This document shows positions 35,279 to 62,033 of a stretch of 64,000 nt of DNA, one piece after another (within the stretch, counting starts at the first letter, position 1; every line of letters begins with the position of its first letter). The notes below the pieces were generated by a model. That model ran no database searches. It worked only from the letters and a program-made list of their open reading frames with translations, and was not told where the DNA came from. The position numbers and the translations under genes are program-made. This DNA is from a virus (Duplodnaviria; Caudoviricetes), in the IMG/VR virus record IMGVR_UViG_3300044630_004720. One strand, 5' to 3'.

Positions 35279-35279
35279 G

Positions 35280-35669: not shown

Positions 35670-36413
35670 ATGAACAACATAGGTTTTGGAATATTTTGTT
35701 TTGGTGAAGAATATTATTTCAACGGAGCGTTTGAAAAAATAAACAATATTCTTAATGAGGGGTATCATTGTTATGTTCTAACAGATACCCCTGAAATTTT
35801 TACTGCAAAATATACCGATACTTTCGTTCACGTTATTCCATATTTTAGAACATTCAAATCATATTCAGATAAGATGTTACTACCCAAATACATCTTAAAG
35901 AAACACGACATTAGTATTCTAATTGATGCTGACACACACATCACAGATTATGGTTTCTTAAAAGAATTTAAAAACTATAATTTCAAATACGGAATCACAT
36001 ATATTAACACATTAAAAAATCACGCTTCTCATAGAGAATTTGTTAAAGATTTAATTACGATAGATAACCCTGAGTGGAATTCATATCACACATATGCAAG
36101 TAAATTATATCCTCCATATGGTGAATATGAAACTATATGGGAATACTTTTTAATAGTTAATAAGATTGGTTTTAATGTTGATGCGTTTTATAATTGGTAT
36201 GAAAAATTACAAATAGCAAAAGAGTTTTCTGATTTAAATCACAATAAAGAGGTGAACGGTGCGGGAGAAGGTGTATCAGTTAGAATAAGTGCTAGATTAT
36301 CGGCAACAATGATACAAAGAGATTTATATCTTTATGATTTACTAAAAGATAAAATGATAAGTGTCAGTAAAAGATACACACCAAAACATCTTTGGCCAGA
36401 TTGGATGAAATGA
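35670..36413 (+). CDS. Putative GT-A fold glycosyltransferase
   Basis: YVLTD, LIDAD (DxD), GAGEG; paralogue of 58831..59463. Confidence 0.55.
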   Translation: MNNIGFGIFCFGEEYYFNGAFEKINNILNEGYHCYVLTDTPEIFTAKYTDTFVHVIPYFRTFKSYSDKMLLPKYILKKHDISILIDADTHITDYGFLKEFKNYNFKYGITYINTLKNHASHREFVKDLITIDNPEWNSYHTYASKLYPPYGEYETIWEYFLIVNKIGFNVDAFYNWYEKLQIAKEFSDLNHNKEVNGAGEGVSVRISARLSATMIQRDLYLYDLLKDKMISVSKRYTPKHLWPDWMK

Positions 36414-37138
36414 TAAGTAACGAAGATTATATTAAGAAATTTATCACCAATAATGATGATGTTCCCGTTACATATAGATGGACACACGGAGCAACTGATT
36501 TACATATGGGTGATGGTATACTCGTGTATTCGATTATCCAACATATGAGAGCAAAGAATTGTGTTTGTATTGGTTCTGGTGGTGGGTTTATACCACGTAT
36601 TATGACACAAGCGAGAATAGATTTACATAAACAAAAAATATTTGATGGAAACAATGATTATAATTGGGGGGATATTGGGTGCACTTATCTTGTCGACGCT
36701 TGTAATGGTGTTGGTGGGCCTAACGACCTTGAAGACGAGTCCTCATTCTTCAGGAGCACGTTTTACCCGCGTCTTATTAAAGCGACTTCAGTCGATGCCT
36801 ACTATGACTTTTTTATTAGACAAGATATTAAAATAGATGTCCTTTTTATTGATGGAGACCATTCATATGAAGGGGTAAAAAAAGACTTTGAACTTTACTC
36901 ACAAATACTATCAGATAATGGTATTATTTTTATACACGACACAGATGCCGACTATGAAGAAACATTAATAGTTTCTGAAGATTCTAAAAAAGACCATTAT
37001 AGATTTGATGGTCCGGCAAAATTTATAAAAGAATTACAAGAAGACTCCGAGTGGAACTTGATTAATCTCTTTAATTTTCGTATATTATCAACAAAGCCAT
37101 CATCTAGTGGCATTACGTTGATAAACAGAAGAAAATGA
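36410..37138 (+). CDS. Class I SAM methyltransferase (Methyltransf_24-like)
   Basis: VCIGSGGG, LFIDGDHSYEGVKKDF, IFIHD; ATG 36410 gives ATGA coupling. Confidence 0.8.
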   Translation: MISNEDYIKKFITNNDDVPVTYRWTHGATDLHMGDGILVYSIIQHMRAKNCVCIGSGGGFIPRIMTQARIDLHKQKIFDGNNDYNWGDIGCTYLVDACNGVGGPNDLEDESSFFRSTFYPRLIKATSVDAYYDFFIRQDIKIDVLFIDGDHSYEGVKKDFELYSQILSDNGIIFIHDTDADYEETLIVSEDSKKDHYRFDGPAKFIKELQEDSEWNLINLFNFRILSTKPSSSGITLINRRK

Positions 37139-37986
37139 TAAGATTGTTATCAGTTATTGGACACGGAACGGAATTAATTCCACACTTTGTTAATCACTAC
37201 TCAAAATATGTAGATGAAATACAATTCGTGGTATATCAATCTGCCATTCATCCTTCATTAATCAATGATGTCAAAGAAAAAATAAAAGACTATAGTAATG
37301 TTAAAGTTGTAAAAACAGTTGAGGATAGAATTTTCGATTGGAATAAGGTAACCGCTTTATATAATTTAATTAAATCAAAGAAACCAAATGATTGGTGGGT
37401 TATTGCTGATATTGATGAGTTTCATTTATATCCAAATGATGATTTATATGATTTAATTCAAGATTGTGAAAAAAATGGGTGGGATATTGTTAGAGGTGGA
37501 TTTATTGATAGAATCGGACCCGATGGGGAGTTTTCTGAACTAAATGATGACGTGGAAATCTTTAAACAATTTCCAAATATGGGATTTTTCAGATATCCTA
37601 TGAGCCAAGCTTGTCCAAATAAAGTTTGCGTGATAAGAGGTGGGATTGAAATAACATCAGGACAACATTATGCAAAGATTAATGGACAAACAACTTGGAG
37701 ATGGCAAGGTTGGAATCATCCTTTAATTAACTCAGATTCATATGTTCAAGTGCACCATTTTAAATGGGATAGTACATCCATAGATAGAATCAAAGCAGTT
37801 GCATCTATTAAACAAGAATATGCATATTCTGATGAATATGGTAAAATGTACGATGCATTAAGAAAAACAAAATTTAAAATAGATTTAAATAATCCTGAAT
37901 TTATGGTTGAATCAAGTGAAGGTCAAGCAGAGTTTAGGAGATATAGAAAATGGAATAAACTAATAAAAAAAATAATATCAATATGA
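37135..37986 (+). CDS. GT2-like glycosyltransferase
   Basis: HFVNHY, WWVIADIDEF, GQH, VHHFKW. Confidence 0.7.
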   Translation: MIRLLSVIGHGTELIPHFVNHYSKYVDEIQFVVYQSAIHPSLINDVKEKIKDYSNVKVVKTVEDRIFDWNKVTALYNLIKSKKPNDWWVIADIDEFHLYPNDDLYDLIQDCEKNGWDIVRGGFIDRIGPDGEFSELNDDVEIFKQFPNMGFFRYPMSQACPNKVCVIRGGIEITSGQHYAKINGQTTWRWQGWNHPLINSDSYVQVHHFKWDSTSIDRIKAVASIKQEYAYSDEYGKMYDALRKTKFKIDLNNPEFMVESSEGQAEFRRYRKWNKLIKKIISI

Positions 37987-38204
37987 GTGAAAAAACAAAA
38001 GACCCTCAAGTAGAATTGTTAGAACTTGAGAAAAGAAAAGTAAAAGCAATTGAGAAAATTGCAAATTCCTTGGACGCACTTACAGTATGGTTTGAAGAAA
38101 TCGACAAACAAGAATGGAGTGACAGAATCCAATATTATTTAGCGGAATGGCATAGTTCAACACAAGACCCTAATAGTCCCACTAATAAAAAATTAAAGGG
38201 TTAA
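37983..38204 (+). CDS. Hypothetical small helical protein
   Basis: ATGA overlap, 73 aa. Confidence 0.6.
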   Translation: MSEKTKDPQVELLELEKRKVKAIEKIANSLDALTVWFEEIDKQEWSDRIQYYLAEWHSSTQDPNSPTNKKLKG

Positions 38205-38211
38205 GTATTGA

Positions 38212-39627
38212 ATGGCAAAAAAGTTAGGATTAATAGTACCATATAGAAATAGACCTAAACATTTAGAACTATTTCAAAAAAGAGTTACAAGATATCTTGA
38301 TAGACATAAGATACCGTATGAGATTATCATTGTCGAACAAGATGAAGCTAAACTTTTTAATAGAGGTATGCTCCTTAACATTGGTTTTGCTTATGCTAAA
38401 AAAATGAATTGTGATTATGTGGTTTTTCACGATGTGGATATGGTTCCACTTCACGTGGATTACTCATATTCAAAATTTCCGGTACATTTAGCAACAGGGT
38501 TTAAACAAGAAGATTGGGAAACACCAAGAATGTTATTTGACACATATTTTGGAGGCGTTACAATGTTCACAGTTGATGACTTTGAAAAAATAGACGGATA
38601 CTCAAACAAATATTGGGGGTGGGGTTATGAAGATGATGATTTGTTATTGAGATGTGTTAAGAAAAAATTAAAGCTAGACACAAAAGTTGTTAAAAACGTT
38701 GGTATTGATGGGCAGAAGTTAAAATTTAACGGATATAACGCATATGTGATTGGTGAAAACAAATTAAACTATAGTAAAGAAAATACAATCTTTATTTCTT
38801 TTTTTCCAGATGAATTAACTTGTAATCACGAAAAACATAACGACGACTTTTCAATATTTTCAATACCTGGTTTTGATTTTGCAATTTCATATAACTCATT
38901 TTCAAGATATAACTTTTGTGCATTTGATTCAACTAAGAAACCTATCTATGTTAATTCATTAATCAAAACCAATTACCAAACAAACATAACGATTACAATT
39001 AATCCCGAGTATAAAAAAATTAGAGTGTTCCAAGATGGACAATTTATAGGAGAAACCGAAGATTTTGATACACTCTACTACTATAAGAAAGAAAAAAATT
39101 TTTATATCGGAGTTGGTAATCCTGAACGAGAAGAAAATCCAAATTATTTCAGAGGATACTTTGATAAATTCATCATATTCAACGATGTACTAACTGATGA
39201 TGAGATTGAACATTTATCAAATAATCACGATGAGGGCGTAATGAAAATGTTTGGTAAAGAAAAACACATTCAACTATACTATAATTCTAAGTTTGTTGAC
39301 AATTATCATTTAACAGACTTAACGGGTAATGGTAAACACGGAAAAATAGTTAATTGTGAAATTGTGAATTTGTCATTAGATAATAAAAGGAAAATTAATA
39401 TACCATTTAGAAGAGATTCTGTTTTTATTACCCAACATCACGAAGATAATGGTTTTAGTGGAAACAGATGGAAAACACAAGCAACAAGGTGGAATCAATT
39501 AAGATACTATAACGAGGTTTCTAAAAATGATGATTTGTTAGATAATGACGGACTATCTACTTTAGAATTTGTGGAGCACGGAAAAACAAAAAATAATAAT
39601 ATAACACATATTAATGTAGGAATATGA
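38212..39627 (+). CDS. GT7 (beta-1,4-galactosyltransferase-like) with inserted LamG-like domain
   Basis: IVPYRNR, FNRG.LLNIG, FHDVD, YFGGV, GYSN.YWGWG.EDDDL; ~220 aa beta-sandwich insert before the C-terminal His segment. Confidence 0.8.
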   Translation: MAKKLGLIVPYRNRPKHLELFQKRVTRYLDRHKIPYEIIIVEQDEAKLFNRGMLLNIGFAYAKKMNCDYVVFHDVDMVPLHVDYSYSKFPVHLATGFKQEDWETPRMLFDTYFGGVTMFTVDDFEKIDGYSNKYWGWGYEDDDLLLRCVKKKLKLDTKVVKNVGIDGQKLKFNGYNAYVIGENKLNYSKENTIFISFFPDELTCNHEKHNDDFSIFSIPGFDFAISYNSFSRYNFCAFDSTKKPIYVNSLIKTNYQTNITITINPEYKKIRVFQDGQFIGETEDFDTLYYYKKEKNFYIGVGNPEREENPNYFRGYFDKFIIFNDVLTDDEIEHLSNNHDEGVMKMFGKEKHIQLYYNSKFVDNYHLTDLTGNGKHGKIVNCEIVNLSLDNKRKINIPFRRDSVFITQHHEDNGFSGNRWKTQATRWNQLRYYNEVSKNDDLLDNDGLSTLEFVEHGKTKNNNITHINVGI

Positions 39628-41033
39628 GTCACAAATTAGGAATCTGTATACCTTATAGAAATAGGAAACATCATATAGATAAATTAATACCGAACCTATC
39701 AAAATATTTAACAAAACATAAAATTGACCATAAATTTTATGTTGGACATCAAGTTGATGACAAATTATTTAATAGAGGTGCAATGAAAAACATCGCAGCT
39801 CATTATGCATTTCAAGAGGGTTGCGACTACATAGCTTGGCACGATGTTGATATGTTACCATATGATGAACAAGGTGTGATTCCTGATTATACATATCCTG
39901 CCGAACATCCGAGACACATTGCAACAAGACTTTCCAAATACAATTACGGAATATTATATGACCAATACTTCGGAGGAGTGGTTCTTTTCACAAAAGAACA
40001 AGCACTTCAAACAAATGGGTATTCAAATGATTATTGGGATTGGGGTCAAGAAGACGATGATTTATTTTGGAGAGCACATTTTGAAGGGATGACAACTGGA
40101 AGAGTTATCAAAACTTACCAAAATAAAAAAGTAGCAAACTTTAATGGTGATGATTCTTATTTAGTAATTCCCACAAATAGAGAGTTAAGTTCTTGTTTAC
40201 ATAATGACCACACAATTACAATAACCTTCAATGCGGAACAACAGGACCACAAAGTTCCAATTTGGTTGGTGGGAGATACTCAAAAGAGATTTGTAGAATA
40301 TCCATTACTAAGAAAAGATGGTTCATTTACTTGGGGGATTTCATTCAATAATTCAAGAGCGGTAACAATGTCTCTTTTAGATAGAGAATCAAGAAATCAC
40401 TACAATTGGGCAAAACGTTTTGAGGGGATGTGGACACAAGTAACTTTATCATATAATAGTGAGGAAAAGAATGCGTATTTTTACGTAAATGATGAATTGA
40501 TTTCACAGATGAACGGAATAAAACAAGGTATACCGTTCCCTATAGGTAGAGACCTTAAAACACACGATGGTATAAAACCATTTTTATTAGGTTTTTGTAA
40601 TCATATGAAAACTTTTTACAAAGGAAAAATTTCTGATGTAAAAATATATGACACATATTTTAGCGACATCAATGAAATGGAATCTAACACTGAAAATTTA
40701 GTAATGGATTTCAATGATGTTAATGAAAAACTGATTAATAACAATGTTACATTCACAAATGAAGACATTGAAATTATAGAGAACATCGTTCCTTATAGAA
40801 AACAAGGAATGTTTTATTGTTTACCACACCAAGACGAAGGTTTTATCAATGGTAAGTGGGCGAAGGGTGAAACAACCGCAAGAAATGAAAAACGTTTCGT
40901 AACTGAAATGCAACAAAAGAAAATAAATTATAAAGAGGAAGGTTTAAATAAAATTACTGAAGTAACTGAAATTGTTGAACTAGATGAAAAATTGTATCCA
41001 AATACAATGTTCATAAATTGTAAAATGAAATGA
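39624..41033 (+). CDS. GT7-like glycosyltransferase with inserted LamG-like domain (paralogue 2)
   Basis: IPYRNR, FNRG.MKN, WHDVD, YFGGV, GYSNDYWDWGQEDDDL; same insert position. Confidence 0.8.
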   Translation: MSHKLGICIPYRNRKHHIDKLIPNLSKYLTKHKIDHKFYVGHQVDDKLFNRGAMKNIAAHYAFQEGCDYIAWHDVDMLPYDEQGVIPDYTYPAEHPRHIATRLSKYNYGILYDQYFGGVVLFTKEQALQTNGYSNDYWDWGQEDDDLFWRAHFEGMTTGRVIKTYQNKKVANFNGDDSYLVIPTNRELSSCLHNDHTITITFNAEQQDHKVPIWLVGDTQKRFVEYPLLRKDGSFTWGISFNNSRAVTMSLLDRESRNHYNWAKRFEGMWTQVTLSYNSEEKNAYFYVNDELISQMNGIKQGIPFPIGRDLKTHDGIKPFLLGFCNHMKTFYKGKISDVKIYDTYFSDINEMESNTENLVMDFNDVNEKLINNNVTFTNEDIEIIENIVPYRKQGMFYCLPHQDEGFINGKWAKGETTARNEKRFVTEMQQKKINYKEEGLNKITEVTEIVELDEKLYPNTMFINCKMK

Positions 41034-42448
41034 TAGATTTTAATATAACTAAAGATAAACTTAATGGTGTTGGTTGTGGATTTTGCCTCGCAAAGTGGAC
41101 ACAAGTAACAATGCATTTACACAATGGGACAACCCATTCTTGTCACCACCCGTCACCACATAAGGTACCTTTAGACGAAATCGAGAGGAACTACACTGCA
41201 CTTCACAATAGCAATACAAAAAAGTATGCTCGTAAAGAAATGTTAACGGGTAAGAGACCGAAAGAATGTGGATATTGTTGGAATGTTGAAGATAATTCTA
41301 ATTCATTTTCAGATAGAATATTTAAAAGTGCGGAACCTTGGAGTGAACCATATTTCGATGAAGTATCCAATTTACATTGGAGAGCAGATTACAATCCAAA
41401 ATATGTTGAGGTAAACTTTTCAAATACGTGTAATTTTAAATGTGCCTATTGCGGACCTGAGTACTCTACAAAATGGATGGAGGAAATAAATGAGTTTGGT
41501 GAATATAAATTGGGTTTCGACTATAATGGTATGAAACAAATGGATGACAATAAAACCAGACCATATAAACAAACTGAGTTTAATCCTTATGTTGAAGCAT
41601 TTTGGAAATGGTGGCCTGAGTTATATCAGACATTAGATACTTTCAGAATTACAGGTGGAGAACCTTTATTGTCTAAAGATACTTGGAAGGTGTTAGATAA
41701 GATAATTGAAACCGAGGAACCTAATAGAGAATTAAAATTATCGATTAACAGTAATTTAGGAGTTAATGATGAATTGATAGATAGATTAATCTTAAAATTG
41801 GATAAGATAATTAGTGAGGACCGAGTTAAGGAAGTTGTCATCTTTACATCTTGTGATGCGTACGGCAAGCAATCCGAATATGTTAGATACGGATTAAACT
41901 TTGAACAACTTTTTAGTAACATAGATAAAATTCTAACAGTACTCCCTAAAGTAACTGTCGTCATAATGTCGACGTTTAACATCTTTAGTATATTCTCATA
42001 CGAAATGTTGATAAAGAAGGTGTTAGACCTAAAACTTAAACATTTCAACACCGAAAGATATTGGAATTCGGCACTCATTTTAGACACTTCTTATCTTAGG
42101 TTCCCTGAGTTCCTAAGTTTCAGAATACTAAAAGGTTTCTTAGATGTTGAGTATTTCAATAGGTGGGAGAAGTTTATGAAATTCAATTCAACCTACAGAA
42201 GTTTAAATTTCTACGAGCAACAAACAATCGATGATGTTGGATTTTCAACCAAAGAGATAGAAAAAATAACGAGAATAAAAGACCTATTCATTAGTGACTC
42301 TAAATCGGATATTTCATTTGATGACAATAAAAGAGATTTTGTGATGTTTATCGATGAATATGAAAAAAGAAGAGGATTGAATTGCCAAGAATATTATCCT
42401 GAATTAACTGACTTTATAAAAAATATAAGAAATGAGAATAAGATTTAA
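41030..42448 (+). CDS. Radical SAM enzyme with N-terminal twitch/SPASM-like Cys cluster
   Basis: FCLAKW..HSCHHP, CGYCW, CNFKCAYC, ITGGEP. Confidence 0.88.
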   Translation: MIDFNITKDKLNGVGCGFCLAKWTQVTMHLHNGTTHSCHHPSPHKVPLDEIERNYTALHNSNTKKYARKEMLTGKRPKECGYCWNVEDNSNSFSDRIFKSAEPWSEPYFDEVSNLHWRADYNPKYVEVNFSNTCNFKCAYCGPEYSTKWMEEINEFGEYKLGFDYNGMKQMDDNKTRPYKQTEFNPYVEAFWKWWPELYQTLDTFRITGGEPLLSKDTWKVLDKIIETEEPNRELKLSINSNLGVNDELIDRLILKLDKIISEDRVKEVVIFTSCDAYGKQSEYVRYGLNFEQLFSNIDKILTVLPKVTVVIMSTFNIFSIFSYEMLIKKVLDLKLKHFNTERYWNSALILDTSYLRFPEFLSFRILKGFLDVEYFNRWEKFMKFNSTYRSLNFYEQQTIDDVGFSTKEIEKITRIKDLFISDSKSDISFDDNKRDFVMFIDEYEKRRGLNCQEYYPELTDFIKNIRNENKI

Positions 42449-43175
42449 AGAACCGTATTGGGTAAAATATAAATGGGATTTAGATACTCACCACGAGAAT
42501 CAATATGTTACAAAATTTAATAAAACAGATATTGAAGAAATAAAGACATTATTTCACCAAGAAAAATTTGTTGTAACCATAGAGGCAAGAGTTTTAGATG
42601 TCTATAGTCGAGACAGTGTTTTCGCGTTGTATGGAAAACCTGGAAAGAATATGGGGTTAACATATAATAATGAAAGTAAGATAATGGCATTTGAATTTTG
42701 GACAAAGTCGGATACCGAAGAATGGGATGATTTTAACTTTGTTTCTTTTGATAATGTTAGACCTGAAGATATTAAAAATGGTGTTACATTATCTGTTGCA
42801 AGAAACAAGGATTCATTCACTCTATATAAAAATTTCGAACCTGTAAATAAAATTAGATTTAAGAATAATCTAATTGATGATTACAAATACACTGGTTTGT
42901 TTTTAGGTTGCGGTAATCCCGGTTCTCCCGTTCCTGAACATCGACAACACGGAGAATATGATATCCATCATTTCTCTATTTTACAAAATACTTCTGACAT
43001 AAAATATGCAAGAGAAATATACGAATCAAAACCGGAGGTTTTACTAAAGAAACCATTTTATTCTGATATTTTATGTCTTTATAATTTTAAAACAATCAAC
43101 AACATCGGAATCATATTCGATGAATCTAAAAACAATAATTTTTTAGAAAGAGTACCTAACGATTTCGTATTGTAA
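42432..43175 (+). CDS. Stand-alone LamG-like beta-sandwich protein
   Basis: LFLGCGNP and terminal L.LYNF pattern resembling the GT7 inserts. Confidence 0.5.
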   Translation: MRIRFKEPYWVKYKWDLDTHHENQYVTKFNKTDIEEIKTLFHQEKFVVTIEARVLDVYSRDSVFALYGKPGKNMGLTYNNESKIMAFEFWTKSDTEEWDDFNFVSFDNVRPEDIKNGVTLSVARNKDSFTLYKNFEPVNKIRFKNNLIDDYKYTGLFLGCGNPGSPVPEHRQHGEYDIHHFSILQNTSDIKYAREIYESKPEVLLKKPFYSDILCLYNFKTINNIGIIFDESKNNNFLERVPNDFVL

Positions 43176-43185
43176 GTATTTTTTT

Positions 43186-43193
43186 TTATATTT
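43186..43193 (+). promoter_or_regulatory. TTATATTT promoter-like motif
   Basis: 19 nt upstream of ATG 43213. Confidence 0.4.
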
Positions 43194-43212
43194 TAATTAA
43201 ATTGAAAATATT

Positions 43213-46354: not shown

Positions 46355-46401
46355 GATTTACTTAACCAACAAAAATTAATAAATTTATTAAAAAGAAAAT
46401 T

Positions 46402-47178: not shown

Positions 47179-47182
47179 AAAT

Positions 47183-47210
47183 AAAAAGGGACTTAATAGT
47201 CCCTTTTTTT
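47183..47210. terminator. Bidirectional intrinsic terminator
   Basis: aaaaagggact-taat-agtccctttttt between convergent genes. Confidence 0.85.
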
Positions 47211-51294: not shown

Positions 51295-51295
51295 T

Positions 51296-53726: not shown

Positions 53727-53727
53727 A

Positions 53728-54696: not shown

Positions 54697-54749
54697 ATAA
54701 ACGTTGTAATTCACTTTAAATTTAAATAAAAATTTTCTATATTTAAACA

Positions 54750-56021
54750 GTGAACGAAAAAATTATTTGTAGTTTAGAAGATTGGGATAGTATTCTAAAT
54801 TATTGGAGACCAAACGGTTCTTCAAAGACTTGGTACATCAAAGAAATGAAAAAACTTTCCATACCACATATGTGGGGGGAATGGAATGTTTACACCGAAC
54901 AAGGAGAAATGTTCGAAGAGGGTCATTTGAGTAATGCAATAACCCCAATGCATAGTAGTTTAGTAAAATACACACCAAAAGACGAGATAGGGGATTCTAA
55001 ACACATATACATCATAAACGTTTATACTCACGATTTTTTCACACATAATTCACATATTGGATTAAAGTGTATATCTCCAGAATATGTCGAAGATATTAAA
55101 TGCGGTAAAGCAAAGATTTTAATGTTCTTTATATATGAAGGTTATTCAGGTATTTGGGGTAATAGTGATTTTGAGATGATTGAGAGATGGAGAAATGAAA
55201 TGGGATTTCCAGTTAACTCCATTTATTATGTTTGTGGTAATCTATTATCTGAAAAAATTGTAAAGGAGAGAGGTTTTGGATATAAGGCAAGAGGTATTCA
55301 CTATTTTGAACCTTGGAACCAATACAAAGGACCAATGGTGGGATTTACCCCACAACCCGAAAAGTATTTGTTCTTGTCATATAACAGACAACCAAGACAC
55401 CATAGAATTAGATTTATGATTGATTTGTATGAAAGAAATTTAATTAATGATGGTTTAATTAGTTTAAATAAAATTGATAGGATTCCATATAGAGTGGGTC
55501 CCAACACTGAACTTTTTTTCCAAGAGAACACACCGCTAATTATTGATAGTTTACCCGAATTGAGGTATAATTTAGCTTGTAACATTACCACAGAAGACTT
55601 TGAAAGGACATTTGTTTCCGTTGTAACTGAAACATTGGTTGATGACGGAACACTATTCTTTTCTGAAAAAATTTGGAAACCGATTATGGTTGGACATCCA
55701 TTTATGATATATGGTAATAAGGGTTCATTAAGTTATTTAAAATCAATTGGTTATAAAACATTTGATAGATGGTGGGATGAATCATATGATGATGAACCTG
55801 ACAAAGACAGAAGAAGTATTATGATTGCAAATGAGTTGTTGAAACTGAAAACAAAGTCAATTGATGAATTAAAAGTAATTAGAAATGAAATGTTGGAAGT
55901 TATAAATCACAATAAAGAAAACTATAACAAAGTCTACCAAGAAAAATATAGTGAAGGAGACCAGTCATCTACAATAAGGGAGGTATTGTTAGAAATGTGG
56001 CAGGAATTAAAGAACGATTAA
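54750..56021 (+). CDS. Putative glycosyltransferase, GT10-like C-terminal motif (paralogue 3)
   Basis: FLSYNRQPRHHR, VSVVTET..FFSEKIWKP..HPF..G..GYKTFDRWWDESYD. Confidence 0.5.
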   Translation: MNEKIICSLEDWDSILNYWRPNGSSKTWYIKEMKKLSIPHMWGEWNVYTEQGEMFEEGHLSNAITPMHSSLVKYTPKDEIGDSKHIYIINVYTHDFFTHNSHIGLKCISPEYVEDIKCGKAKILMFFIYEGYSGIWGNSDFEMIERWRNEMGFPVNSIYYVCGNLLSEKIVKERGFGYKARGIHYFEPWNQYKGPMVGFTPQPEKYLFLSYNRQPRHHRIRFMIDLYERNLINDGLISLNKIDRIPYRVGPNTELFFQENTPLIIDSLPELRYNLACNITTEDFERTFVSVVTETLVDDGTLFFSEKIWKPIMVGHPFMIYGNKGSLSYLKSIGYKTFDRWWDESYDDEPDKDRRSIMIANELLKLKTKSIDELKVIRNEMLEVINHNKENYNKVYQEKYSEGDQSSTIREVLLEMWQELKND

Positions 56022-56022
56022 T

Positions 56023-57060
56023 ATGAAGATTATACACACATATCAAAATACAGATAATGGTGGACCTTTAACAAGAAGTACTTTCTATTATATGACTCTT
56101 TCTGCGTTACTGGCAAAAAGACACTACGGATACGTTGTTCTTTATACCAATAATGAGATAGCTGAGATGGTTAGAAAAATAGGTATTCCGTATGATGAGA
56201 TTAACACTGATTTATTAAATGAAGTTAGGGTTAAAACATTTTCGATTCCTAAAATGATGGTGTATACGGTACAAGAAGAACCTTTCATCCATATTGATTT
56301 GGATTCCTTTATTTTTAAATCTATTGATTTTCCTAAGACAGATTTAATCTATTCAACATACGCTGAAGGGGATGGAGATGTTTTAAATTTTGACACAAGT
56401 AATTCCGCGTTTTATAACACATACATCAAACGAACTTTTGAAATTCAAAATAAACTACCAAAAGAGTTTTTAAAATTTGTTAAGTTTAACAAAATACCTA
56501 ATATGTCAATTTTTGGTGGTAGCAATTATAAATTGATTAAAGAAGCCACCGAATATTGTTTAAACATATATAAAGAAACTCCGAGTTTATTTGATAACAA
56601 TTATTATAATGCTTGTGTAATCGAACAGTTATTCATTCCGTCTGCTATTAGAATGATATTGAACAATGTGAATCACGAATCGTTTAGATTTCTATTTAAA
56701 GGAAATCCGTCATTTGTTGATTTTGTACCTGGCAATGATTGGGAATATCCATTTACCATAAGGTCCCAAAATGACAAGATTAAAATTGAGGACAATGAGA
56801 TTCTTTTTAAACACGTTATGTACGATTTTAATGGTTTTCTCCATTTGAATGGGTATAAAACGATGGAAGAACTTGTATTCTTGTTGAGACAAAGGATAAT
56901 TGAAGATTTTGATGGTACAAAATATATAAAAGTTATTGATGAATATTTCCCTAAAAAGACTAAAGCGGATAAACTAATGATACTTTATCAAAGAAGGTTA
57001 AAATACTTTTCGGATAACATAACAACATTGATAACTAATAACAAAAGCGACACTAACTAA
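56023..57060 (+). CDS. DUF6734-like nucleotide-diphospho-sugar transferase
   Basis: TLSALLA..HYG.V.LYT, PK..Y..Q.EPFIHIDLD, EQ. Confidence 0.6.
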   Translation: MKIIHTYQNTDNGGPLTRSTFYYMTLSALLAKRHYGYVVLYTNNEIAEMVRKIGIPYDEINTDLLNEVRVKTFSIPKMMVYTVQEEPFIHIDLDSFIFKSIDFPKTDLIYSTYAEGDGDVLNFDTSNSAFYNTYIKRTFEIQNKLPKEFLKFVKFNKIPNMSIFGGSNYKLIKEATEYCLNIYKETPSLFDNNYYNACVIEQLFIPSAIRMILNNVNHESFRFLFKGNPSFVDFVPGNDWEYPFTIRSQNDKIKIEDNEILFKHVMYDFNGFLHLNGYKTMEELVFLLRQRIIEDFDGTKYIKVIDEYFPKKTKADKLMILYQRRLKYFSDNITTLITNNKSDTN

Positions 57061-57072
57061 TACTTATTGTAG

Positions 57073-58719
57073 ATGTATACAATTGGAATTTCTGCATATT
57101 ATCACGATTCGTCCGCCTGTCTCTTCAAAGACGATAAATTACTTTTCGCCTGTGAAGAAGAGAAGTTCACTGGTATCAAACACGACAGCTCTTTTCCTAA
57201 AAAAACAATTGAATATATATTCAATCATTACAATTTAACTAAAGACGATATTGAGGCGGTTTGCTATTACGAGAACCCGAAACTTAGATTTAAACGAAAA
57301 AAATCTTTCCTCACCTCACTCCAAACAAATTTAAAAGTTTGGTGGAATCTAAGAAAAATATCAAATAATATTCATTATACACCACACCATATGTCACATA
57401 TGGCGTACTCATATCTGTCATCAAATTTTGATAAATCAGTTATAGTTTCAATTGATGGGGTAGGTGAAACCACCACGATTTCATTTGGTAAGGGTGTAGG
57501 AGGTTCGTATTTTAAGATTAAAGATATTGATTATCCACATTCATTAGGTTTATTTTATTCCGCAATGACTGCGTTTTTAGGATTTAAACCAAATGAAGGA
57601 GAGTATAAGGTTATGGGTTTAGCTGCATACGGTAACCCTGAAAAGTATAGACAAAAAGTAAAACAACTAATAAACTTCAACAACCTTACATTGACTTGTA
57701 ATTTAGAATGTTTCAATTGGAATCGTTCTAAAGATATGATGTTCACTCATAATCTGGTCGAACATTTGGGTATTGATAACAGACTACCTAACGAACCAAT
57801 TACCGAAGACCACAAAGACTTAGCAGCGTCGATACAAGAAAGATATGAGGAATTATTTTTTGAAATTATAAAAGACGCTCAAGCGTTTTTCTATTCTGAG
57901 AATTTAAGTTTAGGTGGAGGTTGTGCGTACAATGGTTGTGCAAATGGTAAAGTAATTGAAAAAGGATTATTTAAAAAATTATGGGTACCTCCCGCACCTT
58001 CAGATGCCGGTTCTTGTATTGGTAGTTGTCTTGATTATTTGGTTAATGTTAAAAAATTAAAAGTTAGAATACCACCAAATCCATTTTTGGGTCCATCATT
58101 TACCGATAATGAAATCCAATCTGTCCTAAACAAATATGGTAATAAAGTTTTTTATAGAAAACAGACCAAAGATAAATTAGTTAGCAGAACCGCACACTAC
58201 CTAAACTTAGGTTTGGTTGTAGGGTGGTTTCAAGATAATATTGAATTTGGTGCAAGAGCATTAGGTAATAGGTCAATACTTGCTAATCCGACCTTCCCTA
58301 AAATGCAAGAGAAAATTAACAAGGTGATAAAAAAACGAGAAGGGTTTAGACCATTTGCACCAATGGTTATTTTCGAACAACAAGATAAGTTTTTTGAGTC
58401 GAGAGAATTTATTCCATATATGAATCAGGTAGTTAAAGTTAGAGCTGAACATAGGGATAAATTACCTGCAGTTACTCACGTAGATGGAACTGCTAGGGTA
58501 CAGTCAGTACTTCCAAATAGTTTGATTTATCAGTTGTTAAAAGAATTTGAACAACGAAGTGGATACCCGATTTTATTAAACACTTCTTTTAATGTTAAAG
58601 ACAAAACAATGGTATTAACACCAGAGGATGCAATTCTTACATACTTAGATACCGCAATGGATATTTTAGTTATGGGAGATTATATAATTTATAAAAATGA
58701 TAAAAATAACACAAGATGA
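57073..58719 (+). CDS. O-carbamoyltransferase (NodU/CmcH family)
   Basis: YHDSSA, EEEKF..IKH, HH.SH, DG.GE, EGEYKVMGLAAYG, GGCAYN, EFGARALGNRS, RPFAP, LLNTSFN. Confidence 0.93.
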   Translation: MYTIGISAYYHDSSACLFKDDKLLFACEEEKFTGIKHDSSFPKKTIEYIFNHYNLTKDDIEAVCYYENPKLRFKRKKSFLTSLQTNLKVWWNLRKISNNIHYTPHHMSHMAYSYLSSNFDKSVIVSIDGVGETTTISFGKGVGGSYFKIKDIDYPHSLGLFYSAMTAFLGFKPNEGEYKVMGLAAYGNPEKYRQKVKQLINFNNLTLTCNLECFNWNRSKDMMFTHNLVEHLGIDNRLPNEPITEDHKDLAASIQERYEELFFEIIKDAQAFFYSENLSLGGGCAYNGCANGKVIEKGLFKKLWVPPAPSDAGSCIGSCLDYLVNVKKLKVRIPPNPFLGPSFTDNEIQSVLNKYGNKVFYRKQTKDKLVSRTAHYLNLGLVVGWFQDNIEFGARALGNRSILANPTFPKMQEKINKVIKKREGFRPFAPMVIFEQQDKFFESREFIPYMNQVVKVRAEHRDKLPAVTHVDGTARVQSVLPNSLIYQLLKEFEQRSGYPILLNTSFNVKDKTMVLTPEDAILTYLDTAMDILVMGDYIIYKNDKNNTR

Positions 58720-58829
58720 AAATTTTTAATTGGATAAAGAACAAGATAGTTCAATGGAAAAAGAAAAGGGAATTTAAAAAGAAATTAGCGGAATTGAAAA
58801 AAAGAGACCCATTTGTTTACAAGCATTAA
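58716..58829 (+). CDS. 37 aa basic peptide ending RDPFVYKH (not in track)
   Basis: MKIFNWIKNKIVQWKKKREFKKKLAELKKRDPFVYKH; ATGA overlap; fills the gap exactly. Confidence 0.65.
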   Translation: MKIFNWIKNKIVQWKKKREFKKKLAELKKRDPFVYKH

Positions 58830-58830
58830 T

Positions 58831-59463
58831 ATGGTTGATGATATCATAGCATTAGTCGCTGTTGGTGAATTTTATATCCAAGAAATTAAAGACTATTACT
58901 GGGATTTAAAAAAAGATGGTTTCACAATTAAAGTGCTAACCGACGATTCGTCACATTTTGATGTTAATGATGTTACCATATACAAAAGACCTGTTTTCAA
59001 TTACTTTGATAAATTACATTTTTCACTTAGTCTCGTTGAGAGGTATGGTAAAAATGTAATCTATATGGACGGTACGTCCGCACTACCAAAACACATTGTT
59101 GCGAACATATCATCTCGTTCAGATTCTGATTTCATATACACATCAAATTGGCCAAAAGGTAATTTTTATGGTTACGAAGATGACCCCTGTTTTAGATATT
59201 TGTTTGAATATTTCCATTATAAAAATATACCAATAATTGACTATCCAACAATATTAGAACAAGTTATGGTTTTTAAAAAAACCATCAATTACGAACTAAT
59301 TAATAAAGAACTTCAAATAATACAAACGGTATTTGATTACATATCTGTAATGAATAACAACACATACATAAGACCATTTGTATTGGGTTCGGCGGAAGGA
59401 TTAGCACTTTCTATAGTACTAACAAATAATAACATTCCATTTACTAAAATTAACATAGAATGA
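58831..59463 (+). CDS. Putative GT-A glycosyltransferase (paralogue of 35670..36413)
   Basis: IKVLTD, FNYFDK, IYMDG, GSAEG. Confidence 0.5.
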   Translation: MVDDIIALVAVGEFYIQEIKDYYWDLKKDGFTIKVLTDDSSHFDVNDVTIYKRPVFNYFDKLHFSLSLVERYGKNVIYMDGTSALPKHIVANISSRSDSDFIYTSNWPKGNFYGYEDDPCFRYLFEYFHYKNIPIIDYPTILEQVMVFKKTINYELINKELQIIQTVFDYISVMNNNTYIRPFVLGSAEGLALSIVLTNNNIPFTKINIE

Positions 59464-60404
59464 AGATAATTTTTGTAAATTGGACTAAACCCTTCTTTCA
59501 CAGGGATAAATTTGATGGGTATAAGAAAGATATAACAATTGTTGATGAAGGGGAAGAATATCAATTACAACCATATGAGTTGTATATGCAACTGGCTGCG
59601 ATAACTAGTGCGAAGAAATTTGGAGGAGTACCTATAAAGTTATATACCGATACTGTTGGTTATGACTACTATACAAAAATTGGATTTATTGATTTATTTG
59701 ATGAGATTGATATTGATGTATTAAATAAGTTAGATAGTACATTGGTGAATCCCGCACAGTTTTGGACTAGTGGTAAGATATTCTCAATATGTCACGAGAA
59801 GCCCCCATTTATATTTTTAGACTTAGATTTAATTATCAAATCACCATTACCTAAGTGGTTATTTAATTATGATGTAGTCCACACCCATTGGGAGATGTTA
59901 AGAGGTCATATGTTTATACACGACTATCAACTAAGGGAGGTTAAATTACATATGCCGGAGTTTGAAGAGAGAATGGCTATACCTAACACTTCATTTTTAT
60001 TTATTAACAACAATTTACTACTCAAGAAATATCGAGAGCTTCATATGAGGATTGTTAATAAAACTTATGAAAGAGTCTCGGATTGGTTATGGTTAATGTC
60101 GGACCAAAACATATTAGGGTACACCATTAGAAATTTAGATTTAAAGGTTGGAGACATTGAGAATCGTATCTTCATCCAATTCGCAGACCCATATGACAAA
60201 AGACATATGCAAGGTTATATTTCAGATTGGATGGAATATGATGGATGTGAAAAAAACATCCCAAAAATAGAATATGACCACATATGGTTGAAAAAATCAC
60301 ATATCGTTAATAATGAGGAATACAGAACAAAGAGAATTAACGATTTTAAACATATCACAATCGACAACGGATACGAAAGTTATTTAAGTAAGTTAAGTAG
60401 TTGA
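59460..60404 (+). CDS. DUF6734-like nucleotide-diphospho-sugar transferase (paralogue)
   Basis: IKLYTD, FWTSGK, PFIFLDLD, PNTSF, DQ. Confidence 0.6.
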   Translation: MKIIFVNWTKPFFHRDKFDGYKKDITIVDEGEEYQLQPYELYMQLAAITSAKKFGGVPIKLYTDTVGYDYYTKIGFIDLFDEIDIDVLNKLDSTLVNPAQFWTSGKIFSICHEKPPFIFLDLDLIIKSPLPKWLFNYDVVHTHWEMLRGHMFIHDYQLREVKLHMPEFEERMAIPNTSFLFINNNLLLKKYRELHMRIVNKTYERVSDWLWLMSDQNILGYTIRNLDLKVGDIENRIFIQFADPYDKRHMQGYISDWMEYDGCEKNIPKIEYDHIWLKKSHIVNNEEYRTKRINDFKHITIDNGYESYLSKLSS

Positions 60405-60436
60405 TTTTCTCTTAATTTTTATGTATATTATATCTT

Positions 60437-60874
60437 ATGATATACTGGTTCACAGGACAACCCGGCGCAGGTAAAACTACCCTATCAAAACATCTGATTT
60501 CGTATTTAGAAAATACCGAAAAAGTGATTCACATTGATGGGGATGACCTAAGATTAATTTTTGAAAACAAAGACTTTTCAGAAACAGGCAGAAGAAAAAA
60601 CATAGAAAGAGCACAAGACATTGCTCGTTTTATGAATGAAAAGGGATACACAGTTGTGGTGTCATTAGTTTCTCCATATAAAGATATGAGAGATAACTTT
60701 AAAACTCACAATTCGGTGATTGAATTTTATGTACACACAACTGAAACAAGAGGAAGAGAATCGTTTCACGTGTCAAATTACGAACCCCCAACAGAAAATT
60801 TTATTGATATTAATACCACTAACAAAGATGAAAGAGAATCTTTCATCGAATTAATTAAATTTATAGATTTATGA
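60437..60874 (+). CDS. cysC: Adenylyl-sulfate (APS) kinase
   Basis: WFTGQPGAGKTT, IDGDDLR, GR..NI, VSLVSPY, YEPP. Confidence 0.85.
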   Translation: MIYWFTGQPGAGKTTLSKHLISYLENTEKVIHIDGDDLRLIFENKDFSETGRRKNIERAQDIARFMNEKGYTVVVSLVSPYKDMRDNFKTHNSVIEFYVHTTETRGRESFHVSNYEPPTENFIDINTTNKDERESFIELIKFIDL

Positions 60875-61254
60875 AAAAGTATGCATTGTACATCGGAAGA
60901 TGGCAAAATTGGCACGCAGGACACGAATGGTTAATTAGCCAACAATTAGATAAAGGGAAAAATGTATGGGTGGCTATTAGGGATGTTGAAGTTGATGAGA
61001 ACAACCCTAAAACCGCACAAGAAGTATTCCAAGAACTAATCAAAGTACCATTTTTTAATGAGAATTTTGATAAAATACTTCTCTCAATTATACCTGATAT
61101 CGAATCCGTAAACTATGGTAGAGGTGTAGGTTATGAGGTGATTTATCATAATCCCCCATCGGATATTGAAAGTATCAGCGGAACCAAAATAAGACAAGGT
61201 TATATGGACAGCAACGGAGACGTTATTGTCTATTCAGTAGATGATGTGAAATGA
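60871..61254 (+). CDS. HxGH nucleotidyltransferase (cytidyltransferase-like)
   Basis: IGRWQNWHAGH, NP, ISGTKIR. Confidence 0.8.
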   Translation: MKKYALYIGRWQNWHAGHEWLISQQLDKGKNVWVAIRDVEVDENNPKTAQEVFQELIKVPFFNENFDKILLSIIPDIESVNYGRGVGYEVIYHNPPSDIESISGTKIRQGYMDSNGDVIVYSVDDVK

Positions 61255-61472
61255 TAGTAGAACGTAAAAGACACATAGCCAAAACAATATCATATAGAGT
61301 AGTATCAACCTTAATCGGGTTTGGTATAATGTGGTGGTTGAGTGGGGACCTTAAAGTAGGGGCGGCGTTCGGTGTCGCGGAACTTGTCTATAAACCAATC
61401 CAATATTACATACACGAAAGAGTTTGGTATAGGTGGATAAAATACGGTTTAAAAGATAAAAATAAGTTATAA
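61251..61472 (+). CDS. DUF2061 membrane protein
   Basis: R.IAKTISYRV..T, YY.HERVW. Confidence 0.75.
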   Translation: MIVERKRHIAKTISYRVVSTLIGFGIMWWLSGDLKVGAAFGVAELVYKPIQYYIHERVWYRWIKYGLKDKNKL

Positions 61473-62033
61473 ATGGATAAATTATATACGGTTGAAAATT
61501 TTCTTAGTGAAAATGAATGTTTGAGTATCTTAACAAAATACAAATCCGAATTAAAACTAAAACCCGCTGAAGTGGCGGTAAAGGAGGGCAATACATTTAG
61601 TGATAAAAGGAAATCATCCATTGCATTTATTGACGGTATAGAAACGATAGATGAGAGAATTAAGAACACATTAAAGAATCTTATACAAATCAAAGGATTT
61701 GAAGTAACAGGTTTAGGTCCATACCAATTTACGGAATATAAAGTCGGTGAGTATTATGATTGGCACACCGACTCATCATCAATTGGAGATGAATATAAGG
61801 ACAGATTTTGCTCTATTGTCATTCAGATTAATGATGAATATGATGGTGGATATCTTCAATTAAAAGATGAGAATGGAAATAATATTCAATTGGATAAGGG
61901 TATTGGTACAATGTATATATTTTATTCAAATATAGTACATAGAGTGGTTCCGGTCACTAATGGAGTTAGGTATTCTTTAGTTAATTGGGTATCTCTTAGA
62001 AAATTAGAAAATTTTAAAAAAACACTATTGTAA
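61473..62033 (+). CDS. 2OG-Fe(II) oxygenase, prolyl 4-hydroxylase-like
   Basis: QFTEY..G.YY.WHTD, S.V.Q.ND.Y.GG.L, H.V.PVT.G.RYSLV.W. Confidence 0.88.
   Translation: MDKLYTVENFLSENECLSILTKYKSELKLKPAEVAVKEGNTFSDKRKSSIAFIDGIETIDERIKNTLKNLIQIKGFEVTGLGPYQFTEYKVGEYYDWHTDSSSIGDEYKDRFCSIVIQINDEYDGGYLQLKDENGNNIQLDKGIGTMYIFYSNIVHRVVPVTNGVRYSLVNWVSLRKLENFKKTLL

Follow-up and report, generated by a model that had tools for sequence, protein, structure and literature searches.

An island of glycan synthesis and tailoring genes adjoining Ser/Thr-rich fibre genes in an uncultured T4-like jumbo phage

Directly behind the fibre genes of an uncultured T4-like jumbo phage from lake water or freshwater lies a dense array of genes for glycan synthesis and modification, which raises the questions of whether this array belongs to the phage and which molecule its products act on. 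In the window, that is, the whole stretch of 64,000 nucleotides analysed here, the glycan gene block occupies positions 35670-62033 (~26 kb) and holds 29 ORFs packed with nearly zero gaps, 27 of at least 80 aa and two of 73 aa (37983-38204 and 61251-61472), close to the ~30 genes originally predicted. A core encoding a methyltransferase, a GT2-like protein, two GT7-LamG proteins and a radical SAM (rSAM) enzyme is syntenic in ~80 IMG/VR contigs; these contigs are related phages, and their synteny is synteny among relatives, not independent evidence. The rSAM identity of the syntenic viral contigs is 52-87%, and the peripheral island genes differ strongly between relatives. Among the relatives bearing the core are two ~325 kb genomes, 97-100% complete, with a gp23-type (T4-type) capsid gene. 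In a close relative the block runs on beyond the position matching 62033, with a tryptophan halogenase and several P4H-like 2OG oxygenases immediately downstream. The G+C content shows no shift across the window.

The glycan island is phage DNA. Mis-assembly of host chromosome onto the contig, which the original prediction had considered, is ruled out by the synteny in ~80 viral contigs, the complete ~325 kb genomes and the flat G+C content. Our findings support its description as a phage-borne block for glycan biosynthesis and tailoring that adjoins Ser/Thr-rich fibre genes. Four freshwater metatranscriptome libraries contain short near-identical pieces of GT7, rSAM, GT-B, PhyH and SDR genes, a weak signal to which DNA carry-over may contribute.

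Family assignments were made by Pfam or NCBIfam profile searches. The first gene (35670..36413, + strand) encodes a 247-aa putative GT-A-like transferase, recognized at the motif level by an invariant D-A-D motif, with zero Pfam or PDB sequence matches. It is followed by the first core gene, for a class I SAM methyltransferase (36392..37138, +; Methyltransf_24), found in 75 related loci, and by a core gene found in 78 loci (37135..37986, +), whose product has a D-I-D motif and a weak GT2_4 match (23.8 bits, below the Pfam cut-off of 27.5). A tandem pair (38212..41033, +; genes 38212 and 39624) encodes beta4GalT-like GT7 proteins, each with GT7N, GT7C and Laminin_G_3 matches, in which the LamG-like domain is placed after the WGWGxEDDD loop; the HDVD and WGWGxEDD motifs are invariant in 30 homologues, and the GT7 proteins comprise 1652 clusters in metagenomes. 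A phage-only family with a GT-B fold is represented by three paralogues (44667..45953, +; 54750-56021, +; 51296-52594, -). In its AlphaFold model (pLDDT 91.5) the nearest structures include GtfC, from serine-rich repeat adhesin glycosylation, tied with a fucosyltransferase, and other fold matches include WaaG, the T4 alpha- and beta-glucosyltransferases (Z 10-11.4) and a chlorovirus glycosyltransferase (3oy2, Z 11.0). The ~10 glycosyltransferases first proposed are thus backed by profile or fold for six proteins (GT7 x2, GT-B x3 and the sub-cut-off GT2_4 match), the remaining four (DUF6734 x2, 35670 and 58813) being called from motifs.

Two rSAM enzymes, encoded at 41030..42448 (+) and 43213..44667 (+), are paralogues of the N-terminal-twitch type with 34% identity and score above the NCBIfam NF033640 cut-off; the first has four invariant Cys N-terminal to CxxxCxxC. 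Relatives carry 5-7 such paralogues in arrays. VIA-align Z scores of 12-14 were obtained to SkfB (13.9), DesII (13.7), BlsE (13.6), MoaA, SuiB and anSME. Between the two genes, a stand-alone LamG-like protein (42432..43175, +) is homologous to the GT7 insert (hhalign probability 97.3) and to residues 1-223 of a 698-aa rSAM of relatives (probability 99.9), in which the domain is fused to the enzyme. That the GT7 insert, the 42432 protein and the rSAM fusions have this domain in common suggests that they share a polymeric substrate, not free nucleotide sugars.

Genes for a 134-aa protein and a PhyH-type Fe/2OG dioxygenase (46402) follow at 45950..47178 (+), and beyond a terminator at 47183-47208 lies an inverted sugar-nucleotide cassette of eight genes (47209..54714, -). 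By position, it encodes a 182-aa TPP Pyr-domain subunit (47209; Transket_pyr), a 269-aa SGNH-like protein (47754), an Fcl-like SDR of the epimerase/dehydratase type (48560), a second Fcl-like SDR fused to a 2OG-Fe(II) oxygenase domain (49531), the GT-B paralogue at 51296-52594, a 209-aa TPP PP-domain subunit (52555; E1_dh), RmlC (53181) and a GalE/dehydratase-like SDR (53728). The TPP E1 alpha/beta pair is truncated. The next run (54750..60404, +) encodes, in order, a GT-B paralogue, a DUF6734 protein with an H-I-D-L-D motif, a NodU/CmcH-type O-carbamoyltransferase (57073; Carbamoyltransferase N and C), a 216-aa protein and a second, weak DUF6734 protein, both DUF6734 proteins being candidate glycosyltransferases at the motif level. 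The end block (60437..62033, +) consists of genes for a 145-aa APS-kinase-like P-loop kinase (60437; APS_kinase), a 127-aa HIGH nucleotidyltransferase (60871; weak match), a 73-aa ORF and a gene for a 2OG-Fe(II) oxygenase (61473; 2OG-FeII_Oxy_3). A remote gene at 1114..2355 (+) for an NDP-sugar 6-dehydrogenase (TIGR03026, 208 bits; cut-off 189.8) may supply precursors.

This inventory bears out most of the original prediction: the three SDRs, RmlC, the TPP pair, the methyltransferase and the carbamoyltransferase each have profile matches, as do the two rSAM and three Fe/2OG enzymes (one 2OG domain being fused to an SDR) and the sugar dehydrogenase at 1114. As predicted, paralogues occur in pairs (GT7 and rSAM) and in threes (the SDRs and 44667/54750/51296). 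The SGNH call stays uncertain and motif-based, Pfam scans of 20 family members giving no match, and of the proposed APS kinase and nucleotidyltransferase the former holds while the match of the latter is weak.

Upstream of the island, as predicted, a 2509-aa Ser/Thr/Gly-rich repeat fibre protein is encoded (24400..31929, +), with 29% Ser+Thr versus ~10% in the cluster proteins; it is the candidate acceptor. The intervening fibre-associated genes (31931..35642, +) encode two small proteins (240 and 259 aa) that resemble PHROG virion structural proteins in their C-terminal part and seem LamG-like on visual inspection. The other two are a gene for a 552-aa protein, which includes a glycine-rich domain, and a small conserved ORF. 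This group is kept upstream of the core in relatives. Among the 47 loci with enough upstream DNA, 43 have an ORF of at least 200 aa with at least 20% Ser+Thr ending no more than 3.5 kb upstream of the core, and not one of the 501 ORFs in the core and beyond it reaches the same Ser+Thr threshold. A TATTTATA promoter-like motif lies at 24326, right behind a strong terminator (24271-24298), and the motif is found immediately upstream of fibre genes 21869 and 24400; the only other strong terminator is the bidirectional one at 47183-47208. One co-directional, terminator-free block thus extends from the fibre genes through the island's first half. However, co-transcription of fibre and island genes remains putative, since the fibre-type promoter motif is found directly before few, if any, island genes and a different T-rich motif lies upstream of 35670 and 43213.

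The reading that we favour, though tentatively, is a cytoplasmic glycosylation system that would equip Ser/Thr-rich fibre or virion proteins of the phage itself with a tailored oligosaccharide; what we infer here is which molecule accepts the glycan, which sugars are made and when the genes are expressed. The inverted cassette, with its GalE/dehydratase-like SDR, RmlC, two GDP-fucose-synthase-like SDRs, 2OG hydroxylase domain and minimal TPP alpha/beta enzyme, could convert host NDP-hexoses to unusual 6-deoxy, possibly two-carbon-branched sugars. The two GT7s, the three GT-B paralogues and the GT-A-like proteins would add these sugars one by one. Tailoring of the product would fall to the methyl- and O-carbamoyltransferases, the Fe/2OG oxygenases, the kinase together with the nucleotidyltransferase, and the twitch rSAM enzymes. 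The LamG-like jelly-roll module may dock the enzymes of the conserved core on a macromolecular substrate that they share. No credible membrane segment was found in the 27 cluster proteins of at least 80 aa, and the Bac_transf, Glycos_transf_4, Wzx and Wzy families are absent from the two relatives that are 97-100% complete. Virion glycosylation is indirectly supported by the conserved fibre link, the co-directional, terminator-free stretch from the fibre promoter motif to 47183, the soluble-looking enzymes, the lack of lipid-carrier and export genes in complete relatives and the LamG-like modules, and also by the presence of GtfC among the nearest GT-B structures.

Soluble transferases can also work on lipid-linked host intermediates at the inner membrane face, with host initiation and export, which counts against the virion reading. 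Tailored sugars would then be placed on host LPS core, O-antigen, capsule or teichoic-type intermediates with the host's initiating transferase, flippase and ligase, an explanation that we consider unlikely but worth serious weight. An altered host surface could block superinfection, keep progeny off debris or evade grazers. The combination of SDRs, RmlC, NDP-sugar dehydrogenase, glycosyltransferases and carbamoyl- and methyltransferases does resemble bacterial surface-polysaccharide loci, the variable island periphery is what an arms-race trait would show, and soluble or peripheral LPS-core GT-B enzymes such as WaaG are among the fold matches. Host-surface modification is also the usual reading of the islands of the T4-like cyanophages P-SSM2, S-SCSM1 and S-SCSM2R (PMC12801897). 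However, the scanned cluster proteins include no membrane protein, PGT, WecA-type, Wzx and Wzy genes are missing in the complete relatives, and the core is persistently and tightly linked to fibre genes, not to early genes. The 'bacterial-O-antigen-scale pathway' of the original prediction therefore holds for size but not for the initiating transferase, flippase and polymerase, which are missing. To our knowledge, LamG-like docking on glycosyltransferases or rSAMs is not a feature of LPS or CPS enzymes, which also counts against an envelope target.

For both the GT-B family and the rSAM enzymes, fold neighbours that act on proteins, glycans, nucleotide sugars and DNA are tied, a spread that likewise speaks against the virion reading. 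Next in likelihood, and doubtful, is that rSAM chemistry is central: twitch rSAMs would introduce epimerisations, cross-links or Ser/Cys oxidation into fibre or other phage proteins, with glycosylation secondary, or the island would make a soluble glycosylated peptide or small molecule, much as natural-product pathways do. Among the closest structures are SkfB (Z 13.9), SuiB and anSME, which modify peptides and proteins, but the sugar-acting DesII (Z 13.7) and BlsE (Z 13.6) score on a par with SkfB. The arrays of 5-7 rSAM paralogues and the downstream halogenase and P4H-like oxygenases of the close relative would fit such maturation, and TPP E1 pairs, carbamoyltransferases and halogenases are typical of antibiotic sugar pathways. 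Yet the island showed no gene for a precursor peptide, an NRPS/PKS, an exporter or immunity, and at least six transferases argue for a glycan as the main product. Glycosylation of modified phage DNA bases as an evasion of restriction is very improbable, even with T4 alpha- and beta-glucosyltransferases among the GT-B fold neighbours (Z 10-11.4) and with DNA modification being frequent in large phages (Pyle et al. 2024, as cited in PMC12619734). Each of three relatives has a single thymidylate-synthase homologue with strong Pfam scores, and that of the close relative G003 lies above the NCBIfam equivalog cut-off for canonical ThyA. The genome contains zero CATG sites versus ~234 expected and encodes an NlaIII/IceA-like nuclease, which suggests that it is protected from this nuclease of its own by site loss and not by base modification. 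The linkage is to fibre and not to replication genes, and deoxy- or branched-sugar and carbamoylation chemistry goes far beyond known DNA glycans.

Virion glycosylation by a virus-encoded apparatus has precedents. Mimivirus fibril clusters and chlorovirus capsid glycosylation combine virus-encoded rare-sugar pathways with soluble glycosyltransferases, independent of host ER and lipid carriers. The likeness to our island lies in these own sugar pathways and transferases, with the chlorovirus enzyme 3oy2 among the fold matches, but the hosts are eukaryotic and the gene families unrelated, and we know of no rSAM or LamG-sharing core in giant-virus machineries. In mycobacteriophages, according to the work of Freeman et al. 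(2023, Cell Host Microbe) as cited in PMC12619734 and PMC12801897, phage glycosyltransferases adjoin structural genes, as here, and glycans are put on virion proteins in the cytoplasm, proven there and only proposed for our phage; those systems are described with 2-4 glycosyltransferase genes and host sugar nucleotides, whereas this island has ~29 genes, its own sugar-nucleotide tailoring and rSAM and Fe/2OG enzymes.

The three cyanophages are likewise large T4-type myoviruses with a hyperplastic cell-wall/LPS gene island. This too is rich in glycosyltransferases, of which S-SCSM2R has 13, and includes NDP-sugar epimerases and RmlC; a radical SAM 'maturase' and a TagD-like cytidylyltransferase are placed among the glycosyltransferases, and the targets are predictions only (PMC12801897). 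The capsid protein of our lineage has only ~30% identity to those of the cyanophages, and a tblastn search of 50,697 deposited phage genomes found no match to the GT7-LamG and GT-B families, so the gene families differ from those of the cyanophage islands. PMC12801897 describes no LamG-sharing core or fixed post-fibre place for those islands. Large T4-like cyanophages and giant viruses thus already provide islands of a comparable sort; what is new here is the conserved LamG-sharing core, fixed after the fibre genes.

The phage GT7s resemble animal beta-1,4-galactosyltransferases in GT7N and GT7C, both over the cut-off, and in FNRxxLLNxG, HDVD and WGWGxEDDD, invariant in 30 phage homologues, but differ by the ~200-aa LamG-like domain after the WGWG loop, the lack of a membrane anchor and the tandem arrangement of their genes. 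The rSAMs share the CxxxCxxC + GGEP core and an extra invariant four-Cys set with the twitch/SPASM enzymes SkfB, anSME, SuiB, BtrN, DesII and BlsE; their auxiliary Cys are N-terminal to the core (NF033640), not C-terminal, and many copies carry an N-terminal LamG-like domain. Among deposited phages, an rSAM homologue (42% identity) is present only in the Ralstonia jumbo phage RsoM2USA (MG752970). Its rSAM gene is likewise situated among structural genes and is preceded by genes for a 2540-aa protein, a sheath-like protein and an SDR epimerase; the genes there are all annotated as hypothetical, and GT7-LamG, methyltransferase and GT-B genes are missing from this phage.

Our results show that the glycan gene block at 35670-62033, hereafter the island, is phage DNA and belongs to a widespread lineage. 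In IMG/VR, 191 stretches encode a relative of the island's radical SAM protein and 88 encode a relative of the fibre-side gene 33620 (bare numbers are window start coordinates). Two relatives are genomes of 324-326 kb, 97-100% complete according to CheckV, that encode a gp23-type major capsid protein, and the segment 38212-46354 was found nearly whole in lake-water metagenomes from more than 12 studies. The original prediction had named a mis-assembled piece of host chromosome as grounds for rejection; since the block recurs in viral contigs, in these near-complete phage genomes, and in lake metagenomes, the island is not mis-assembled host DNA. Deposited phages are distant: when the island and the 24 kb before it were compared by megablast with 50,697 deposited phage genomes, no match was obtained, and the nearest deposited capsid proteins, from an uncultured 484 kb phage, Microcystis phage Mel-JY01, and Flavobacterium 'immuto' phages, are 42-45% identical over 57%. 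The capsid protein of the lineage (G001:C1:136400-138500 in a related phage genome; locus L167) has 596 aa, and deposited capsids match it in two pieces that together cover this 57%, pointing to a large insertion in its middle. A search of genome contigs for the radical SAM protein yielded three contigs and added no bacterial context. Two of them, PBPT01000016.1 (L164, 335 kb) and PBPT01000082.1 (L165, 153 kb), encode the protein at 42% identity and are filed under a Neomarinimicrobiota MAG; they look like phage and may come from jumbo phages whose contigs were binned into a bacterial genome.

The island contains 27 ORFs of at least 80 aa and two ORFs of 73 aa, most of which overlap their neighbours or lie only a few bases from them. 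Its G+C content (0.30-0.34) lies within the range of the window (0.29-0.39), with no compositional break. Pfam and NCBIfam profile searches upheld most entries of the predicted gene list: a Methyltransf_24 protein (36392), two proteins with Glyco_transf_7N, Glyco_transf_7C, and Laminin_G_3 domains (GT7-LamG; 38212 and 39624), two radical SAM proteins (41030 and 43213; NF033640), a PhyH protein (46402), a NodU/CmcH-type carbamoyltransferase (57073), an APS-kinase-like P-loop protein (60437), a HIGH-type nucleotidyltransferase of 127 aa (60871), and a 2OG-FeII oxygenase (61473). The protein encoded at 37135 matched GT2_4 weakly (23.8 bits, cut-off 27.5). On the minus strand lie a Transket_pyr protein (182 aa), an E1_dh protein (209 aa), three SDR epimerase/dehydratases, and an RmlC protein (114.5 bits in Pfam). 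Outside the island, an NDP-sugar dehydrogenase over its subfamily cut-off is encoded at 1114. The paralogy noted originally was confirmed, in the GT7 pair (26% identity), the radical SAM pair (34%), the SDR trio, and the triplet 44667/54750/51296. Six of the approximately ten glycosyltransferases originally proposed are supported by profile or fold, and the other four stay putative. Nine unassigned proteins had no match in PHROGs and NCBIfam.

Synteny across related jumbo phages, which had been proposed as a check together with profile searches, separates a core with conserved gene order from a variable remainder. The methyltransferase, the GT2-like protein, the two GT7-LamG proteins, and the radical SAM protein occur in the same order in about 75-84 of the fetched loci searched by tblastn, down to 52% identity of the radical SAM protein, and the sugar-nucleotide cassette, the carbamoyltransferase, and later genes were found by tblastn in closer relatives only. 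G003, the closest related genome, is syntenic up to the window end and beyond the equivalent point encodes a tryptophan halogenase, three more 2OG oxygenases, an SGNH-like protein, and another DUF6734 protein. The halogenase, which is flavin-dependent (L161:10741-11985, Pfam E 9.8e-87), lies just past the equivalent of 62033, and L161:14381-15865 is homologous to the 483-aa gene 62102-63553, which lacks a Pfam match (30% identity, 511 aa). Between the fibre genes and the island, 34 loci keep the ORF 35127-35642 (171 aa), which as listed overlaps the 3' end of 33620-35278; an internal methionine at residue 52 (MAHFARID...) would place its start just past the stop of that gene.

The two GT7 proteins score well over the Pfam cut-offs of 27 and 23 for the 7N and 7C domains (75.8 and 70.1 bits for 38212, 62.4 and 69.6 bits for 39624). 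In 30 homologues, the signatures FNRxxLLNxG, HDVD, and WGWGxEDDD are invariant, as are residues H73, D74, D76, W135, W137, G138, E140, and D141. The Laminin_G_3-like domain follows the WGWG loop at about residues 175-346, so the catalytic domain is not module-free; this insert is a variant architecture and gives no ground to exclude the proteins from the GT7 catalytic family. Both radical SAM proteins (316.8 and 284.1 bits) exceed the cut-off of 170 for NF033640, 'twitch domain-containing radical SAM protein'. Cysteines C134, C138, and C141 of the CxxxCxxC motif are invariant in 34 sequences together with C19, C38, C80, and C83, an auxiliary four-cysteine set N-terminal to that motif. In core fold, peptide modifiers (SkfB, Z 13.9; SuiB; anSME) tie with sugar modifiers (DesII, Z 13.7; BlsE, Z 13.6). 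In the IMG/VR loci L066, L045, and L059, the GT7 pair is followed by tandem arrays of 5-7 twitch radical SAM paralogues that have diverged to 18-57% identity.

A LamG-like module connects the two enzyme classes. In hhalign, the family of the stand-alone gene 42432 aligned over 168 columns with the LamG-like portion of the GT7 proteins' family (probability 97.3, E 2.5e-11). Many metagenomic orthologues of the first radical SAM protein have about 698 aa, compared with 472 here, and in one of these longer proteins residues 1-223 correspond to the 42432 family (probability 99.9). By these alignments one module is common to all: it is built into both GT7 proteins, free between the two radical SAM genes, and fused to the radical SAM protein elsewhere. 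The simplest reading is that it would serve as a common substrate-binding module, in which case the core enzymes would act on one macromolecule and not on free nucleotide sugars. The hhalign relation of the enzymes' LamG-like domain to the fibre-side protein 31931 is weak or absent (E 0.0085 and 0.22) and gives no ground for deriving the enzyme module from a fibre module.

Among the proteins without a named family, the triplet 44667/54750/51296 belongs to a family confined to phages. A structural model built with an alignment of 30 homologues (pLDDT 91.5) has two Rossmann-like domains, and its top Foldseek matches are GT-B enzymes without exception. The three best structural matches in VIA-align are tied, lying within about one Z unit of each other: Helicobacter pylori alpha1,3-fucosyltransferase (Z 12.5, rmsd 4.9, 273 aligned), Limosilactobacillus reuteri GtfC (Z 11.8), and T4 beta-glucosyltransferase (Z 11.4). 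The model thus identifies the three as predicted GT-B fold glycosyltransferases; for a GT10 fucosyltransferase assignment there is no Pfam match and an atlas lead of 0.79 only, with the top Z scores tied. An invariant D-A-D motif in the 35670 family and an H-I-D-L-D motif in the DUF6734 protein make both putative transferases, which at motif level are guesses; hhalign gave no credible relation of the 35670 family to 58813 or to the DUF6734 protein. The minus-strand 47754 family conserves GDSL-like GCSFTWGQG and NGGS blocks, with D-H-H in place of DxxH in the final block, and its putative SGNH identity finds no match in Pfam or among PDB sequences. When every member of the 47754 and 35670 families was scanned with Pfam, only chance matches came up, and PDB sequence and profile searches of the GT-B, radical SAM, 42432, 35670, and 47754 families returned nothing useful.

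What is known of these enzyme families suggests that the GalE/dehydratase-like SDR, RmlC, and the two Fcl-like SDRs may supply 6-deoxyhexoses. GDP-L-fucose synthase is the best match for two of the three SDRs, although both score far under its equivalog cut-off; one of the two carries a fused 2OG-Fe(II) domain. For a dTDP-L-rhamnose pathway (RmlABCD), RmlC falls below its equivalog cut-off (108.4 bits, cut-off 155.75), the SDRs score far under the RmlB and RmlD equivalogs, and no RmlA was seen within the 64-kb window. The truncated E1 alpha/beta pair, with PP and Pyr domains only, resembles enzymes that introduce two-carbon branches in antibiotic deoxysugar pathways. Hydroxyl, methyl, and carbamoyl decorations could be added by the 2OG domains, the Methyltransf_24 protein, and the NodU-like carbamoyltransferase, and phosphate- or sulfate-type decorations by the kinase and the small nucleotidyltransferase.

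Virion glycosylation is the best-supported reading of the island's target and a serious possibility, held tentatively. The glycosyltransferase genes adjoin virion structural genes in the same orientation. In 43 of the 47 loci with at least 3.5 kb of upstream DNA, which are akin to one another and thus not independent samples, an ORF of at least 200 aa in which Ser and Thr make up at least 20% of the residues ends no more than 3.5 kb upstream of the core; from the core onward, none of 501 ORFs reaches 20%. The only strong terminators in 24000-64000 lie at 24271-24298 and 47183-47208, so the gene for the 2509-aa fibre (24400-31929), the fibre-side genes, and the leading twelve ORFs of the island (35670-47178) all run in one direction as a single block without a terminator, and we infer that the fibre genes and the first island half may be co-transcribed. 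The motif TATTTATA stands just 5' of start codons at eight plus-strand places, including those of both large fibre genes; occurrences at 6770, 9418, 15957, 19234, 21839, 24326, and 62068 precede start codons, that of the 62102 gene among them, by about 10-70 nt and probably represent a phage promoter class. Another T-rich motif, TTTTTTTATATTTTA, precedes 35670 and 43213. Four freshwater metatranscriptome libraries contain short fragments nearly identical to several island genes, a hint that these genes are expressed; the RNA contigs on 29000-48999 are short, and none bridges the fibre-to-island junction.

The same transferases could instead remodel the host surface or, much less probably, glycosylate DNA. 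Sugar-nucleotide tailoring genes and several glycosyltransferases are what the island shares with Wzx/Wzy- or ABC-dependent O-antigen and capsule clusters, but the initiating transferase, flippase, and polymerase families of such clusters were not found in the island or the complete relatives. The genomes G001-G003, which stand in for the window's own genome, lack matches to Bac_transf and Glycos_transf_4 (initiating phosphoglycosyl transferases), and the complete relatives lack Polysacc_synt (Wzx) and Wzy_C, families that were all matched in control genomes; the search covered these four families. None of the 27 island proteins of at least 80 aa shows a credible membrane segment. These results argue against a classical host-surface pathway, and one relying on the host's own machinery would be compatible with them. 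Against DNA glycosylation, each of G001-G003 has a single thymidylate-synthase homologue with a strong Pfam score, the G003 copy (343.8 bits) exceeds the ThyA equivalog cut-off of 325, and no additional homologue of the T4 type that forms hydroxymethyl-pyrimidines was found in the three relatives. Also against it, CATG is absent from the 64 kb (234 +/- 14 expected), and an IceA/NlaIII-like nuclease gene lies at 2726-3682 (Pfam ICEA, E 2.5e-32) with no adjoining methyltransferase. This suggests self-protection via site loss and not via bulky base modification; only 4 of 80 related loci are CATG-free, so the avoidance is recent and confined to this lineage.

A bolder form of the virion reading, possible but rather doubtful, is that a widespread, uncultured lineage of lake jumbo phages would aim GT7 enzymes and N-terminal-twitch radical SAM enzymes at its own Ser/Thr-rich fibres via a portable LamG-like docking domain, which would yield a radical-tailored, methylated, and carbamoylated virion glycocalyx. 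If true, this virus-encoded machinery for glycosylating and maturing proteins would have no described counterpart in bacteriophages. If the virion is the target, lake phage particles would bear complex self-made glycans, with effects on host recognition, protease and grazer resistance, and particle stickiness in the water column. To our knowledge, glycan gene islands of big phages have been noticed for twenty years with their target not known. This lineage offers a sharper handle, with a conserved five-to-seven-gene core behind fibre genes (the 43 of 47 loci), two enzyme classes with one docking domain in common, and export machinery families that were not found. Metagenomes hold 1652 clusters of GT7-LamG relatives at 90% identity and more than 6000 of radical SAM relatives, with no names or generic ones, so one biochemical result would give thousands of genes an annotation.

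Virion glycans made by the virus are known from mycobacteriophages and giant viruses, and as in the mycobacteriophage type the glycosyltransferase genes here stand beside structural genes and are co-oriented with them, a likeness of gene arrangement. Islands rich in glycosyltransferases and NDP-sugar enzymes are also known from large T4-like cyanophages, among them S-SCSM2R with 13 glycosyltransferases and 22 'cell-wall' genes, and have been read as host-surface or DNA modification (PMC12801897). The present island is of the same kind as both, but differs from known islands in its core of GT7 and radical SAM enzymes sharing LamG, its fixed position after fibre genes, its abundance in lake metagenomes, and its GT7-LamG and GT-B families, which had no tblastn match in the 50,697 deposited phage genomes. 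Among deposited phages, only the Ralstonia jumbo phage RsoM2USA encodes the radical SAM protein; its gene is likewise located in the structural region, preceded by a 2540-aa protein, a sheath-like gene, and an SDR.
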